A stretch of DNA of 64,000 nucleotides from Dictyostelium discoideum (lineage: Eukaryota). The DNA lies in NCBI GenBank assembly GCA_000004695.1, contig CM000155.2:224001-288000 (forward strand), read 5' to 3'. The notes beneath the pieces are model-generated. The model made no database searches and was not told the origin of the DNA. It saw nothing but the letters and a program-made list of their open reading frames with translations. Made by a program: the position numbers and the translations under genes. This document shows, in pieces, positions 36,638 to 49,157 of the stretch; position 1 is the first letter of the stretch; every line of letters begins with the position of its first letter.

Positions 36638-39600
36638 ATGGTTAAAGGTAAAATTAATAAAAAAAAAAAAAAAAAAAAAAAAAAATAATAATAATAATAA
36701 TAATAATAATAAAATTAATAGTTGTATTAATTTTTTTTTTTTTTTTTAATTTAAAATAGATAGATTAAAAGGATATGCACAATGGCATCATGTTGTTCCA
36801 AGAAAAGAAAGAAATAATCCAACGATTATTCAACTAGCTAAACATTTTGGAATTTCAGTAAATAAATTTATAAATGATAGTAGTAATTTAGTTAGATTAC
36901 CAAATAAGAGATGTGTTGAGATGATGTATGTAAAGAATAGGCTTGTTCATCATGGTTATCCACGTTGGCATAGAAAATATAATTTAATTTGTAACAAGAG
37001 ATTAATCGATATATTTGTAAATTATTCAAAAGATTTAAACAAAATGTATGAAAAATATAAAGAACTTCAAAATGATTTAAAATCGTATATAGGTTATGAC
37101 AAAAATAGATTAAACGAAAAAATGGATGACGGGCTAGCTCATCTCAGACAAAAAGGTTATGAAAAACATTTACAAAGAGTTTCTCAACAAAATTTAGAAA
37201 AAGATAATAATTCAAGTAATTTAAAAAACTATACCCATTATTCATCATTAACAAATGGTGCTTTAAAATCGTCACACATTGGTGGTGTTGCTGTAATTCC
37301 AAATTTATTTAAAGGTTGGTCAGATTCAATCTCATATTTCACTCAATCATCTCATATTTTATGTATGAATTTAAATGATAATAATAATAATGATAATAAT
37401 AATAATGATAATAATAATAATAATAATAATAATAATAATAATAATAATAATAATAATAATAATAATAATAATAATAATAATAATAATAATAATAATAATA
37501 AAGAGTTTGAAGTTGAAATTATTGAAAAATTAGAAAATTTAGAAATAAATTATAATGATAAAGAAAAAGAAATTAAAGATTATATTAATTCAAAAGAAAC
37601 CAATCAAATAATCAAAGAGTTAATTTATGGTATTTATGAACATGATACATTACCATTCTTTTCATTACATTTTAATGAAAATGGTACAATGTTTCCAATT
37701 ATTCATCCAGCTTATCAGAATACATTAATTGGTGAAGTGATATTAATGTTGGATTATTATATGAAGGGATTTTTACATGGTGGTTTCTATGATAGGGAAT
37801 TTGTAAGTAAATGGGATTCAAAGGATGATTTGAATAAAACTTTAGATTGTGAAATTTTAAAACAAAATTTAATTGATATAAAAAAAGAGATTGAATCAGG
37901 TACTTGGATTCATTTAAAGGAGAAGATTAAATATAAATCGTTAAGAGAAAGGGCATTTGAAATGGGTTTGGAGGGTAGTGGTGGTTTAGAAGATTTACAA
38001 TCAAATTTAATGGATTTGAATTTGGATATAACCGATCCATCAATTGTAGCATTAAATAAAGCATATGATAATTTAAAAGCTTATAAGGGTTTAAAATATC
38101 AAACTTCATTTAGAATTTTAGCAAATGAACAATCTGCTCAATCAATTGATGGAATTTGGATTATCGATAATAATTTCACAGTAAAATATACAATTGAACC
38201 AACTTATCCATATCAACAATATTTGAATTCATATAAAGTTGTATTTGGTACATTACCAAAAGAATATCAAATTCAAGATCAATTATATACTGAAGTTGCA
38301 AATTCAATCTCTAAACAAATGCCACTTTTACCACCATGTAAAAAATATTTCTTTTTATTATCACAAATTTCTTTTTTTTCAAATTATATTTCAACTTTAA
38401 AAAGTTGTGGTCAAATTCCAAAATTAAATTATCAACAAAAACAAGTAAAAGAAGAAGAAGAAGAAAAGGAAGAAGAAATAAAATTAAATTTTAAAACACC
38501 AAGTCAATTACCACCATTACCAGTTAGATATTTTAAAGGTATAAAATTAACATTAACAGTTGGTGAAATTATTAAATCAATTTGTGATGCTGCTGATGCT
38601 GATGATGATGAAAATAAAGATATTTTAAATTGTTTAAAAGAATATGGTAAAATCAATTTTAAATTTGAAATTGAAAATTTACAATCACCAATTTCTATTG
38701 ATAATAATAATAATAATAATAATAATAATAATAATAATAATAATAATAATAATAATAATAATAATAATAATAATAATAATAATAATAATAATAATAATAA
38801 TAATAATAATAATAATATTGAATCAATTAAATCTTCACATGAATCATATAAGAATTTAATTAATAAATTATCAAATCTAATATCAAATTTAATGATTAAT
38901 AAAATTAAAACTTTAACAAATAATACAAGTGAATACAATTTTAAAGATATTGAATTAAGTGAATATTGTGATAATTTAGCAACTGGATTTTTAGTATTAA
39001 TGAAATCAATTATTGGAATTGTTGAAATTAGTAAATTTCAAACATTATTTTATATGATGGCTCAATATCTTTACATTTTAGAATCAAAAACTGATAAAAT
39101 CGCTTCACAATTTGGTGATGTACCTTGGCCATTATCAAGTACATTACCAAAAATTGATTTTGAAAATCAAACAACCACTATTAATCCTGAACATCATTCT
39201 AAAATGTTTGAATGTGTTCAATCATTTCATAATGATTGTAAAAAATTTAATATAAATTTAAATGATATTGAAAACAGTTGTCAATCAATTATATCAACTT
39301 GTAAAAATCAAATACTTTTTGAATTATGTGATGGTTGTAAAGGTGATTTTCAAATGCATTCTGAACAAATTTACAAAGTTGATTCAATTTGTAGAATCAC
39401 CTATGAAAGAAATATTCGTAAAGAATTAAATCAACAATTGAATCAACTTCAAGAGAAATATAATCAACAATATTGGTTCACATCTTTCTTTTTAGGTACG
39501 AAAAGAAAATTGAATGAAACAAAGTTAATATTGGATAGATTAGATAGTGTGCTTGATTTTGCAATCCCACCATCATTGGAAGAATTTAAAAAGAGTTTTG

Positions 39601-48600: not shown

Positions 48601-49157
48601 CAATGACAAGATTAATTCAATGTCAAATTGAAAAGAAAAATTATCAATTACTTGAAAGATTCTTTAATTTACTTTCAAATTTAAGATTATTCTTTAAATC
48701 TTCAGATTCAATTAAAAATAATTTAAATAATTTAGATAATAATAATAATAATAATAATAATAATAATAATAATAATAATAATAATAATAATAATAATAAT
48801 AACTTTAATATTAAATGTAAATGTAAAGATAATCAATTTTCAAGATTTATTAAATCACCAATAATTATCCAACTTTTAGAATCTAGTGAAATTTTATTAT
48901 TAAATCCATCAGAAAGTAATATAATATCATTTGTAAATAGATTAGAAAATTCAATAATTCAATTAATTCAACAAGAATGGGCACAATTTTTCACAGATTT
49001 CTCTGAATTATCTTCACCATCAAATTATTTATCAACGATTTCTTCTACTCCTGAAGAATTTTTTAATGATTGGTGGTATAACCAATCAGTTGCTTCTTGT
49101 TTAGAAGAAAATATTCATTCTCATTTAGAATCTTTAATTTTAAATTTAAATCTTTAA
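36638..49157 (+). CDS. Giant (~4,130 aa) multidomain protein with ankyrin-repeat blocks and a C-terminal SecA-like ATPase motor domain, plus poly-N/poly-Q/acidic low-complexity spacers. Proposed exons 36638..36647 (MVK+g) and 36760..49157.
   Basis: One uninterrupted 12.2-kb ORF (36921..49157). The same frame stays open upstream to an acceptor at aaaatag| (36759) that matches a 10-nt first exon ATGGTTAAAG|GTAAAATT (36638). ANK blocks at ~40290-41000 (GNTKLHLAAEND..., GLTPLACSILMGN..., GITPLYSSIYEGY..., NTALHIALTFGN...) and at ~43530-44750. SecA-like region at ~46800-48480 (see the separate feature). Confidence 0.8.
46800..48480 (+). other. SecA-type DEAD-like motor domain (NBD1, PPXD-like insertion, NBD2/IRA2) embedded in the giant protein
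   Basis: Motif-by-motif match to bacterial SecA. VLTGEGKSTIVALLASYCAILGRTIDIITTSEYLAQRD matches [39 protein letters not shown] (Walker A). LVIVDEVDSLFMDSALNSARMAIS matches [22 protein letters not shown] (DEVD Walker B). LTGTCGEDSERSELSLVYDVDSFNVPSYQP matches [45 protein letters not shown] matches VTIATNMAGRGTDIVL. GLHVIFAFYPANLRVECQGLGRSGRQGQNGSCRII matches [35 protein letters not shown]. No helical scaffold, wing or zinc C-terminal domain follows. Confidence 0.8.

Follow-up and report, generated by a model that had tools for sequence, protein, structure and literature searches.

Polymorphic toxin systems of bacteria include Tox-AHH, a nuclease toxin domain of the HNH/EndoVII fold with a conserved order of residues, [AG]HH, N, H, H, Y, for which hexapods are the only eukaryotes tabulated (Zhang et al. 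2012, PMC3482391). The same paper describes Tox-REase-8 combined with ankyrin repeats in Wolbachia and Amoebophilus, copies of which also occur in the genomes of arthropods, and it mentions 'SecA-like helicase-related domains' in effectors of Amoebophilus (Zhang et al. 2012, PMC3482391). Chlamydiae are prevalent in wild Dictyostelium, according to a preprint (bioRxiv 10.1101/2024.11.01.621453).

The giant gene considered here lies in a 64,000-nt stretch of Dictyostelium discoideum AX4 chromosome 6 (hereafter the window). Like the endosymbiont effectors, it joins a predicted nuclease toxin to ankyrin repeats, its bacterial relatives have intracellular carriers, and it has apparently been transferred to a host genome; it differs from them in its toxin family, in an unnamed domain that we call X, in its obligatory SecA-like partner and in having its variable head at the N-terminus. 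The Tox-AHH order appears in it as WHH...N...H...WHRKY, with Trp in place of Ala/Gly before the HH dyad. In contrast to Tox-AHH, the domain is N-terminal rather than C-terminal, no secretion or RHS/filamentous region precedes it, and the host is a eukaryote. The C-terminal module shares with SecA and SecA2 (PDB 6t4h, 1m6n) the NBD1/NBD2 ATPase motifs and, inserted at the same place, a remnant preprotein cross-linking domain, whereas the helical scaffold/wing and SEC-C go undetected, and it has a leader and C-terminal tail of its own, common only to a bacterial SecA-like family. Also unlike SecA and SecA2, the SecA-like module is fused to, or encoded beside, a giant ankyrin protein.

Read from the window, the open reading frame at 36921..49157 on the forward strand specifies 4078 aa. 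An earlier sequence-only reading had recognized this 12.2-kb frame, its upstream extension to a splice acceptor and a 10-nt mini-exon at 36638, and each of these holds: the frame is open to 36750 with no in-frame ATG upstream of 36921, the AG acceptor ends at 36759, and splicing 36647 to 36760 gives a single coding sequence of 12408 nt (4135 aa) without internal stops. The resulting gene structure is as follows.

36638..36647, forward strand: exon 1, ATGGTTAAAG, encoding Met-Val-Lys and the first base of Asp4, with TTAAA before it and the donor GTAAAATT after it
36648..36759, forward strand: intron 1, 112 nt, GT...AG, composed of A, T and AAT runs
36760..49157, forward strand: exon 2, a single exon of 12.4 kb ending at a TAA stop

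Seven ATG...GT candidates can be joined in frame to the 36759 acceptor, and only the one at 36638 is kept in other species. The mini-exon is the annotated gene start in D. discoideum strain GCA_054883475.1, D. cf. discoideum, D. citrinum and D. firmibasis, and together with a following GTAA it opens the gene models in these four other Dictyostelium genomes, taking the form ATGGGTAAAG in D. citrinum; this conservation strongly supports the predicted 10-nt first exon. Intron 1 differs between orthologues in both length and sequence, in contrast to the conserved exons on either side. The junction codon (G/AT) is Asp, giving an N-terminus of MVKDRLKG where MVKG/DRLKG had been proposed. The 53 codons 5' of Met58 are open and free of indels, with dN/dS of 0.34-0.50 against D. 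citrinum and D. firmibasis, and comparison across species reads these codons, which lie upstream of the first in-frame ATG and carry the WHH and N motifs of the nuclease domain described below, as coding. No internal intron is needed in the giant exon, as had been supposed, and the D. firmibasis orthologue is likewise one unbroken frame of 4001 codons.

The N-terminus carries the predicted nuclease, which together with the next helix, to about aa 140, we refer to as the head.

36777..37040, forward strand: predicted AHH nuclease domain (HNH/EndoVII superfamily), aa 10-97, Pfam PF14412
36783-36791, forward strand: AHH motif WHH
36885-36902, forward strand: AHH motif NLVRLP
36948-36980, forward strand: AHH motif H-x5-WHRKY

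PF14412 matches the head with 29.5-30.3 bits, above its gathering score of 22.3, over profile positions 17-95 of 111; the Dictyostelium heads match it above the gathering score in four cases of four (best E 2.8e-8), and AHH is the sole Pfam family in aa 1-210 at E <= 0.1. Four species share residues W12-H13-H14, N46, H67, H73 and Y76 without change, and by alignment to the AHH profile columns, which was made by eye, every residue that we interpret as catalytic (WHH, N, H, H..Y) is present in the head. From this motif pattern and a single profile match of about 30 bits, we predict that the Dictyostelium head is an AHH (HNH/EndoVII) nuclease domain. Single-sequence searches with the head found no relatives, the PDB holds no sequence relative of it, and an AlphaFold model from single-sequence input (all-helical, pLDDT 56) is unusable. 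The AHH motifs can all be translated only if exon 1 is spliced on, and a product beginning at Met58 has no AHH match in Pfam. The head also evolves faster than the rest of the protein (D. discoideum and D. firmibasis are 58 % identical in the head versus 74 % elsewhere), and the head of Polysphondylium violaceum is unrelated to AHH (hhalign probability 0.25 %).

A helix-turn-helix had been suggested at the N-terminus. The PTIIQLAKHFGISVNKF segment on which it was based sits inside the AHH match, as a linker between the WHH and N motifs, and no helix-turn-helix family is matched at E <= 0.1. Domain profile searches bear out the ankyrin and SecA parts of that reading and find AHH where a helix-turn-helix had been expected.

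Between head and motor lie domain X, the ankyrin arrays and repetitive spacers, with ankyrin extents taken from Pfam hits and reading of the sequence by eye.

37278..38669, forward strand: domain X, aa about 177-640, unnamed, beginning at the IGGVA junction motif
38701-38817, forward strand: (AAT)n poly-Asn spacer following domain X
40176-40220: (GAA)n
40287..41939, forward strand: ankyrin array 1, aa about 1180-1730 (Pfam Ank_2, Ank, Ank_3, Ank_4, Ank_5)
43238-43279 and 43389-43452: further (AAT)n arrays
43512..43919, forward strand: ankyrin array 2a, aa about 2255-2390
43968-44069, forward strand: (CAA)n poly-Gln spacer separating ankyrin arrays 2a and 2b
44427..44744, forward strand: ankyrin array 2b, aa about 2560-2665
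48736-48802, forward strand: (AAT)n inside the C-terminal tail

Domain X is marked by the motifs PFFSLHFN, (Y/F)P(V/I)IHPAYQNTL, LDYYMKGFLxGG, TSFRI, V(E/K)YTI and LPPLPVRYF. It has no Pfam match, and a Foldseek search with its predicted model, which reaches only pLDDT 52, returned none. Ankyrin repeats are present as anticipated, in three stretches rather than the two blocks of about 230 aa that had been described; array 1 spans about 550 aa, with some 14 repeats counted by eye, and is collinear with the arrays of the bacterial proteins. The poly-Asn runs and the poly-Gln/acidic tract reported earlier are real, the (AAT)n poly-Asn run at 37374-37501 splits domain X, and the poly-Asn tracts after domain X and in the C-terminal tail are missing or of different length in orthologues. 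No signal peptide was seen by inspection, no recognized trafficking domain was found in Pfam, and no transmembrane-type hydrophobic 19-mer is present, the single above-threshold segment falling within the ATPase core; the 4135-aa protein is apparently cytosolic.

Towards the C-terminus lies a SecA-like ATPase ordered as leader, NBD1, a divergent insert at the PPXD position, NBD2 and a family-specific C-terminal tail containing QQEWAQFF.

46251..49121, forward strand: SecA-like ATPase module, aa 3168-4124 (Pfam and bacterial SecA-like HMM)
46956-46970, forward strand: Walker A GEGKS, NBD1
47268-47279, forward strand: DEVD, NBD1
48264-48290, forward strand: TNTAGRGTD, NBD2
48384-48404, forward strand: GRSGRQG, NBD2

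NBD1 and NBD2 retain Walker A, Walker B and arginine-finger motifs, and Pfam matches SecA_DEAD (1.4e-53) and P-loop_SecA (3.5e-24); a SecA-type ATPase core is present, as the sequence-only reading had indicated. An HMM built from 43 bacterial SecA-like proteins scores 751 bits on aa 3168-4124, tail included, over positions 95-932 of 940. Among solved structures, SecA2 and SecA match best (E about 1e-58), and phmmer aligns the protein to solved SecA chains up to about residue 550-605. Scores against the NCBIfam SecA/SecA2 equivalogs are 258, 227, 220 and 218 bits versus cut-offs of 862, 814, 800 and 930 (160-258 versus 725-1493 overall); one NCBIfam alignment reaches profile position 723, with a total score far under its cut-off. 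Neither PF07516 (SecA_SW, helical scaffold/wing) nor PF02810 (SEC-C) was reported by Pfam at E <= 0.1. Falling far below the NCBIfam cut-offs and lacking the Pfam wing/scaffold and SEC-C matches, the module is not a true SecA translocase. PF01043 (preprotein cross-linking) matches the amoebal protein at positions 84-110 of 110, with 27 bits, and its bacterial relatives at positions 21-109; a polypeptide-handling role for the motor would follow from SecA ancestry, with just these 27 profile positions of the preprotein-binding domain detectable.

The closest counterpart of the whole protein is a bacterial module that starts with a toxin head of variable type, continues with domain X and an ankyrin array, and is completed by a SecA-like ATPase. 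We counted 60 bacterial loci with domain X, at one genome per species in the scanned collection (hence at least 60), with 28-38 % identity across most of the domain and tblastn E-values down to 2e-62. The carriers are Chlamydiae, Legionella, Coxiella, Holosporaceae and other mostly intracellular bacteria, and one locus belongs to a 'Rhabdochlamydiaceae symbiont of Dictyostelium giganteum'. Usually the module is divided between two adjacent co-directional genes, and sometimes it forms a single fused frame of about 3700 aa. In Legionella nautarum (LNYO01000027), an X-ankyrin gene of 2440 aa is followed after a 24-nt gap by a SecA-like gene of 998 aa, the product of which is annotated 'preprotein translocase SecA'. 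Among the 37 loci whose downstream sequence extends for at least 9 kb, the SecA-like gene lies downstream in 24 and upstream on the same strand in 4. Three loci encode the module as one frame collinear with the giant protein, including a single 3710-aa frame in Holosporaceae bacterium 'Namur' (JACGYV010000017) and the fused frame of a Francisella-like MAG. Bacterial heads match Ntox28 (8/53), Lipase_3 (1/53) and a Scabin-like family (1/53), with weaker ADP-ribosyltransferase-like matches below cut-off, and the remainder include several of unknown type. The AHH head was not found by BLAST in any of the 60 loci. Interchangeable toxin domains on a constant chassis (AHH, Ntox28, Lipase_3, ADP-ribosyltransferase-like), as in polymorphic toxins, are thus found here; a C-terminal toxin behind secretion or trafficking domains is not.

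The giant protein has the IGGV junction and the PFFSLHFN, LDYYMKGFL and LPPLPVRY motifs of domain X, followed on one strand by ankyrin repeats and a SecA-like module with the family tail. The bacterial pairs and fusions resemble it at 32-38 % identity across the junction and domain X and at 35-44 % across the SecA-like core and tail, have ankyrin arrays as well, and in fused form are of similar size (about 3700-3760 aa versus 4135 aa). The amoebal gene differs in its spliceosomal intron, its poly-Asn, poly-Gln and acidic spacers, its GC content of about 22 %, its AHH head and about 1500 aa of inter-domain sequence without detectable bacterial counterpart. These comparisons identify the giant protein as a putative full-length, collinear, single-polypeptide dictyostelid form of the bacterial module. 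The sequence-only reading had overlooked this toxin/effector architecture. We found no paper describing the bacterial module or the Dictyostelium giant gene, and the family of domain X and its SecA-like ATPase is apparently undescribed so far.

Conservation of the ankyrin-SecA linkage in other dictyostelids had been proposed as a check, and the linkage is collinear in D. firmibasis (the full 4001-aa frame), D. citrinum, D. cf. discoideum and P. violaceum. The 12.4-kb frame is intact in at least five genomes, and dN/dS is 0.34 overall and 0.20 in the ATPase (range 0.2-0.6); the dictyostelid gene is under purifying selection. Gene order is kept as eIF3K, the giant gene and, on the opposite strand downstream, the DUF4291 gene DDB_G0291408. 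At a distance of 2 kb upstream of the giant gene is a gene for a small ankyrin protein. GC content of about 19-25 % is like that of the flanks. In neighbour-joining trees, the dictyostelid SecA-like sequences are monophyletic (50/50 bootstraps) and nested in the bacterial SecA-like clade (41/50), which stands apart from canonical SecA (50/50). Holosporaceae appear as the dictyostelid sister in only 18/50 bootstraps, and no particular group is singled out as sister in the domain X tree. The gene was probably acquired from such an intracellular bacterium. With amoebal sampling comprising Dictyostelium species and P. violaceum, we infer a single horizontal transfer predating the split between them, and the module may already have been fused when transferred.

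We think it reasonably probable that the best overall explanation is a captured toxin-module protein in which the chassis and ATP motor serve the AHH head, as a weapon in the amoeba. The head is variable while chassis and motor are constant; therefore, the chassis probably serves the head and not a particular substrate. It would, with its motor, serve to hold or regulate an interchangeable toxin head or to deliver it: the head might be held or masked by domain X and the ankyrin array, and the SecA-like motor could spend ATP to remodel, unfold or thread polypeptide, such that the head would be released or delivered to a target compartment. In the amoeba, the nuclease would most plausibly be a weapon in conflict with intracellular or ingested bacteria or other amoebae, and the large size and ankyrin array may keep it from the cell's own DNA.

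Other readings of the same layout appear less probable. One is a helicase-nuclease machine, in which a DEAD-type SF2 motor tracks along DNA or RNA and feeds an N-terminal HNH-type nuclease, like enzymes that combine a helicase with HNH in restriction or repair. The head is a predicted nuclease, the ATPase core retains all SF2 motifs (GEGKS ... GRSGRQG) and has weak DEAD and Helicase_C matches, and the bacterial relative P0007 faintly matches DbpA, RecQ, DinG and DpdF. However, SecA and SecA2 are by far the nearest relatives, about 3000 residues separate nuclease from motor, and the bacterial chassis and motor also bear non-nuclease heads (Lipase_3, ADP-ribosyltransferase-like), and therefore the motor cannot be nucleic-acid-specific; we regard this machine as unlikely. 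We also doubt that the protein is an NLR/STAND-like sensor, its ankyrin array sensing an invader, its ATPase acting as a switch and its nuclease as a death or defence effector. Effector, repeat array and NTPase are all there, with interchangeable effector heads, faster change in the head than in the rest and an unrelated head in P. violaceum, yet the NTPase is SecA-like and neither a STAND nor an AAA+ switch, the domain order is unlike known NLR-like systems, and PADLOC gave only generic ankyrin matches. The carriers, too, are mostly reduced-genome intracellular bacteria, in which one would sooner expect effectors aimed at the host than elaborate genes for immunity.

A bolder and rather improbable form of the captured-toxin explanation makes the module a self-contained and so far unrecognized device with which intracellular bacteria deliver toxins, whose dedicated SecA-derived motor would thread the interchangeable toxin at the N-terminus out of a membrane or across it; social amoebae would have captured a complete copy from a symbiont, re-armed it with the AHH head (a different one in Polysphondylium) and put it to use against intracellular bacteria or in strain conflict during aggregation.

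The sequence-only reading had proposed a modular scaffold with an N-terminal helix-turn-helix, by which a SecA ATPase may be tethered to a partner in the membrane or the cytoskeleton. The protein is modular, and long ankyrin arrays are typical of protein-protein interaction scaffolds, but the tether is very unlikely, given an N-terminus with AHH motifs and no helix-turn-helix match, the absence of signal peptide and transmembrane segment, and conserved bacterial partners that are toxin heads and domain X instead of membrane or cytoskeletal domains. Least credible of all are a genuine Sec-pathway translocase (organellar SecA/SecA2), which the top structural matches recall and the low NCBIfam scores, missing wing and SEC-C and truncated PDB alignments contradict, and a decaying relic or bacterial contaminant, against which stand the intact frame, dN/dS, spliceosomal intron, flank-like GC and conserved synteny.

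Our findings correct the logic by which a gene among the largest in a model organism is annotated; in this gene, the catalytic half of the predicted nuclease exists only with a 10-nt exon spliced on. A eukaryote apparently holds, under selection, a full-length giant toxin/effector module otherwise confined to protist-dwelling bacteria, and the inter-domain transfer would be unusually large and complete (4135 aa, against about 3700 aa for the bacterial module). Such a transfer ties in with the known associations of chlamydiae with Dictyostelium and of Legionella with amoebae. The analysis also brings to light what appears to be a new family, domain X with its SecA-like ATPase, which bears interchangeable toxin heads and is present at 60 or more bacterial loci; Dictyostelium offers a genetically tractable system in which to study how a SecA-derived motor may function outside the Sec translocon.

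The giant gene lies on chromosome 6 of D. discoideum AX4, between the gene for eIF3 subunit K and DDB_G0291408. The features around it are:

2725-4203, + strand: CorA-like transporter
16579-22409, + strand: Nup98-Nup96 nucleoporin precursor, with FG repeats, S59 autopeptidase and Nup96 domain
35277-35982 and 36078-36113, spliced, upstream gene: eIF3 subunit K, exact match to XP_635189.2
36921-49157, + strand: giant ORF counted from its first in-frame ATG, 4078 aa
49229-49810, - strand: DDB_G0291408 (DUF4291 gene), exact match of the ORF
50574-51443, + strand: class I methyltransferase
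51731-53035, - strand: SRP72-like TPR protein
59860-61935, + strand: USP5-like ubiquitin hydrolase

Because these neighbors are ordinary eukaryotic genes, the giant gene is embedded in a normal housekeeping neighborhood, and its GC content (~19-25 %) resembles that of its surroundings. Elsewhere in the window, GC peaks at 0.43 (16-18 kb) because of the FG-repeat region of the Nup98-Nup96 precursor, and a 919-aa ORF at 11528-14287 (+), which has no Pfam match, a very strong C-over-G skew (-0.57) and GC raised to 0.31, is probably a low-complexity coding region.

The giant frame is open upstream of its first in-frame ATG as far as 36750, a stretch that holds no other in-frame ATG and includes an acceptor AG ending at 36759. 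Splicing ATGGTTAAAG (36638-36647, donor GTAAAATT) to 36760 yields a 12408-nt CDS of 4135 codons with no internal stops, which supports the 10-nt mini-exon and single giant exon proposed by the sequence-only reading. Seven upstream ATG...GT combinations can formally join the 36760 acceptor in frame, and conservation singles out the one at 36638: ATGGTTAAAG followed by GTAA is the annotated exon 1 in four sister genomes, with the variant ATGGGTAAAG in D. citrinum. Orthologue models starting with the mini-exon are 4113 aa in another D. discoideum strain, 4339 aa in D. cf. discoideum, 4058 aa in D. citrinum and 4003 aa in D. firmibasis, and the intron sequences that follow differ among the four. 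Since the D. firmibasis orthologue is a single uninterrupted ORF of 4001 codons past the intron, the giant gene needs no internal introns. Protein look-up found no record of the 4078-aa unspliced product. The structural observation made earlier is essentially right and agrees with the gene models of sister genomes, and the (AAT)n, (CAA)n and (GAA)n tracts lie at or near the coordinates proposed for them. Two details needed correction: the final base of exon 1 forms a GAT codon across the splice, and the protein starts MVKDRLKG instead of the peptide given earlier, and the ankyrin repeats, claimed as two blocks of ~230 aa, are indeed present and extend further (~aa 1180-1730, 2255-2390 and 2560-2665).

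At the N-terminus, aa 10-97 match the Pfam family AHH (PF14412; 29.5 bits, gathering score 22.3), described by Pfam as a nuclease family within the HNH/EndoVII superfamily. All four Dictyostelium heads match AHH separately (best E 2.8e-8). The ordered residues of the family, [AG]HH, N, H, H and Y (PMC3482391), correspond in the giant protein to WHH (36783-36791), NLVRLP (36885-36902) and H-x5-WHRKY (36948-36980), which are invariant in four species. By profile and motif, the N-terminus is thus predicted to be a nuclease domain and not the helix-turn-helix suggested earlier: the segment read in that way links the HH motif of AHH to its N motif, and the Pfam search reported no helix-turn-helix family there. 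The WHH dyad and the Asn are encoded upstream of the ATG at 36921, and a product starting from Met58 has no AHH match in Pfam. The 53 codons upstream of Met58 are open and without indels in all species compared; their dN/dS is 0.34-0.50 against two more distant species and 1.08 against the closest, where there are very few changes. The AHH motifs and this constraint, both of which reach upstream of 36921, are independent evidence for a coding extension that needs the mini-exon or another exon upstream.

This head is the least conserved recognizable domain of the protein, with 58 % identity between D. discoideum and D. firmibasis compared with 74 % overall. Only the Pfam profile recognized it; as search queries, the N-terminal 204-208 aa returned nothing useful among 5.8 billion and 1.8 billion proteins. 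Protein searches never returned the giant protein itself or others above 3000 aa (the P. violaceum model among them), and because very long proteins are seemingly not indexed, missing hits are uninformative about orthologues. AlphaFold models of the head (single-sequence input, pLDDT 56) and of domain X (three-sequence input, pLDDT 52) were too poor for use, and Foldseek searches of the PDB with predicted models gave no match at E <= 0.001.

At the C-terminus, Pfam identifies SecA_DEAD and P-loop_SecA, together with 27 remaining positions of the preprotein-binding domain, and reports no wing/scaffold or SEC-C domains. The ATPase motifs are all intact. The proposed SecA motor stands as a SecA-type ATPase core; as a true SecA it does not, since its scores with the NCBIfam models for SecA and SecA2 are 160-258 bits, where the cut-offs are 725-1493. 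When aligned to SecA and SecA2 chains of solved structure, it matches no further than NBD2, and identity to canonical SecA is only ~30 %, compared with 35-44 % to the closest relatives, proteins of ~850-1060 aa from Legionella, Rhabdochlamydia and many unnamed metagenomic bacteria. A profile of 43 bacterial SecA-like proteins covers giant aa 3168-4124 (positions 95-932 of 940, 751 bits), so the leader and C-terminal tail are also common to the bacterial family. We therefore classify the C-terminus, from these comparisons, as SecA-like rather than SecA, and the earlier functional picture of a helix-turn-helix protein with a tethered SecA motor is not supported. A defence-system library gave generic ankyrin matches only, and NCBIfam gave SecA matches below threshold. 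The Dictyostelium gene that the literature names secA is cited as exocytic and is distinct from this giant gene.

The two ends are joined by a chassis that also occurs in bacteria. In Legionella nautarum, a 2440-aa gene is followed after 24 nt by a SecA-like gene, and its product contains a counterpart of giant aa 285-611 (34 % identity) and then a collinear ankyrin array. We call the conserved stretch domain X; it spans giant aa ~177-640 from an IGGVA motif onward, and no Pfam family matches it. Scanning a single genome for each bacterial species placed domain X in 60 bacterial loci, among Chlamydiae (Parachlamydiaceae, Simkaniaceae, Protochlamydia, and Rhabdochlamydia including a Dictyostelium giganteum symbiont), four Legionella species, a Coxiella MAG, the Holosporaceae 'Namur', Francisella-like and Thiotrichales MAGs, Rickettsiales and some Verrucomicrobiae MAGs. 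Most of these carriers belong to groups known as inhabitants of eukaryotic cells. Domain X, ankyrin repeats and SecA-like ATPase follow one another on one strand in 24 of the 37 loci whose downstream sequence extends for 9 kb or more, and the SecA-like gene lies upstream in four. The X-ankyrin and SecA-like genes usually abut or overlap, and in three bacterial loci they form one ORF of 3710-3760 aa, collinear end to end with the amoebal protein. In three bacterial loci, L017, L023 and L025, the two ORFs share a reading frame with one stop codon between them, which could reflect chance, a sequencing artefact, or readthrough to a fused product. Downstream of the L. nautarum pair (L008:11305-17331) are integrase, resolvase, Fic/RhuM and Tn3-transposase genes, a hint that the pair is on or beside a mobile element.

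The heads, N-terminal to the IGGV junction, are interchangeable, and among the bacterial proteins they diverge completely (column identity averages 12 %). Pfam finds Ntox28 in 8 of 53 bacterial heads (37.9 bits in the D. giganteum symbiont, against a gathering score of 25) and Lipase_3 in one, and the Francisella-like fused proteins show Scabin-like and pertussis-S1-like ADP-ribosyltransferase matches under the gathering score. AHH and Ntox28 are both catalogued among the domains of bacterial polymorphic toxin systems (PMC3482391). In the present module the variable domain is N-terminal. By sequence comparison, the whole amoebal architecture matches the bacterial module, with a putative toxin head, domain X, ankyrin array and SecA-like ATPase. 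Neither the giant gene nor the module turned up in literature searches. From aa 142 to 4130 the P. violaceum orthologue is collinear, but its head is unrelated to the Dictyostelium heads (hhalign probability 0.25 %). An HNH-like pattern seen by eye in that head (NFHHIN...N..LL...DH......H) had no Pfam support at E <= 10. This orthologue is annotated as two genes (3268 and 408 aa); homology crosses a 1-nt frame change at a CCCC run in the SecA-like part (L002:9600-10080, the P. violaceum locus), and the split is probably an assembly error.

In regard to mechanism, the adjacency of the genes in bacteria and their fusion in amoebae and three bacteria suggest that the motor acts with or on the X-ankyrin protein. 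Because the heads are predicted to be an RNase-type toxin, a lipase, an ADP-ribosyltransferase-like domain or a DNase-type nuclease, the role of the chassis is unlikely to be substrate-specific; it would more likely hold, mask, activate or deliver the head. The giant protein could possibly be read as a helicase-nuclease or as an immune sensor. Given the polypeptide-threading ancestry of the ATPase and the surviving remnant of the preprotein clamp, our most economical guess is that the motor would remodel or thread a polypeptide, driven by ATP. The amoebal protein is presumably cytosolic, since it has no transmembrane segment and no signal peptide was seen. In-cis masking of the predicted nuclease by the ankyrin array is conceivable because the immunity proteins listed for Tox-AHH include ankyrin proteins (PMC3482391). 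A small ankyrin-repeat gene at 34031-34459 (-), with a 142-aa ORF here and 148-aa models elsewhere, lies ~2 kb upstream of the giant gene and is kept in every Dictyostelium locus examined; its likeness to the ankyrin type of Tox-AHH immunity protein may be coincidence.

D. firmibasis keeps the arrangement of eIF3K, giant gene and DUF4291 gene, and in D. citrinum and D. cf. discoideum, too, eIF3K directly precedes the giant gene. Comparison of D. discoideum with D. firmibasis gives a dN/dS of 0.34 overall, 0.20 in the SecA-like part and 0.39 in the head. In a neighbor-joining tree the dictyostelid SecA-like sequences are monophyletic (50/50 replicates) and fall within the bacterial SecA-like clade (41/50), which is apart from canonical SecA (50/50). 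Holosporaceae are their sister in 18/50 replicates, with no donor lineage singled out, and the domain X tree likewise gave no specific sister lineage for dictyostelids. From these sequence relationships we infer that a single transfer from a bacterium to dictyostelids preceded the Dictyostelium/P. violaceum split; the gene may have been fused before it moved, and its intron and low-complexity spacers would be later gains. Chlamydiae are prevalent in wild Dictyostelium, according to the abstract of a preprint (bioRxiv 10.1101/2024.11.01.621453), which makes this route of transfer plausible. D. cf. discoideum (GCA_054859205.1) also carries a short paralogue (L001:10001-12390; 619-aa model) with the SecA-like core and tail only, 58 % identical to the giant protein; the paralogue adjoins Ty3-like gag genes, and the neighbor-joining tree puts it outside the D. 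discoideum/D. firmibasis pair. Our main result is what the giant protein is: a copy, conserved in amoebae, of a bacterial module of toxin head, domain X, ankyrin array and SecA-like ATPase that has apparently not been described before.
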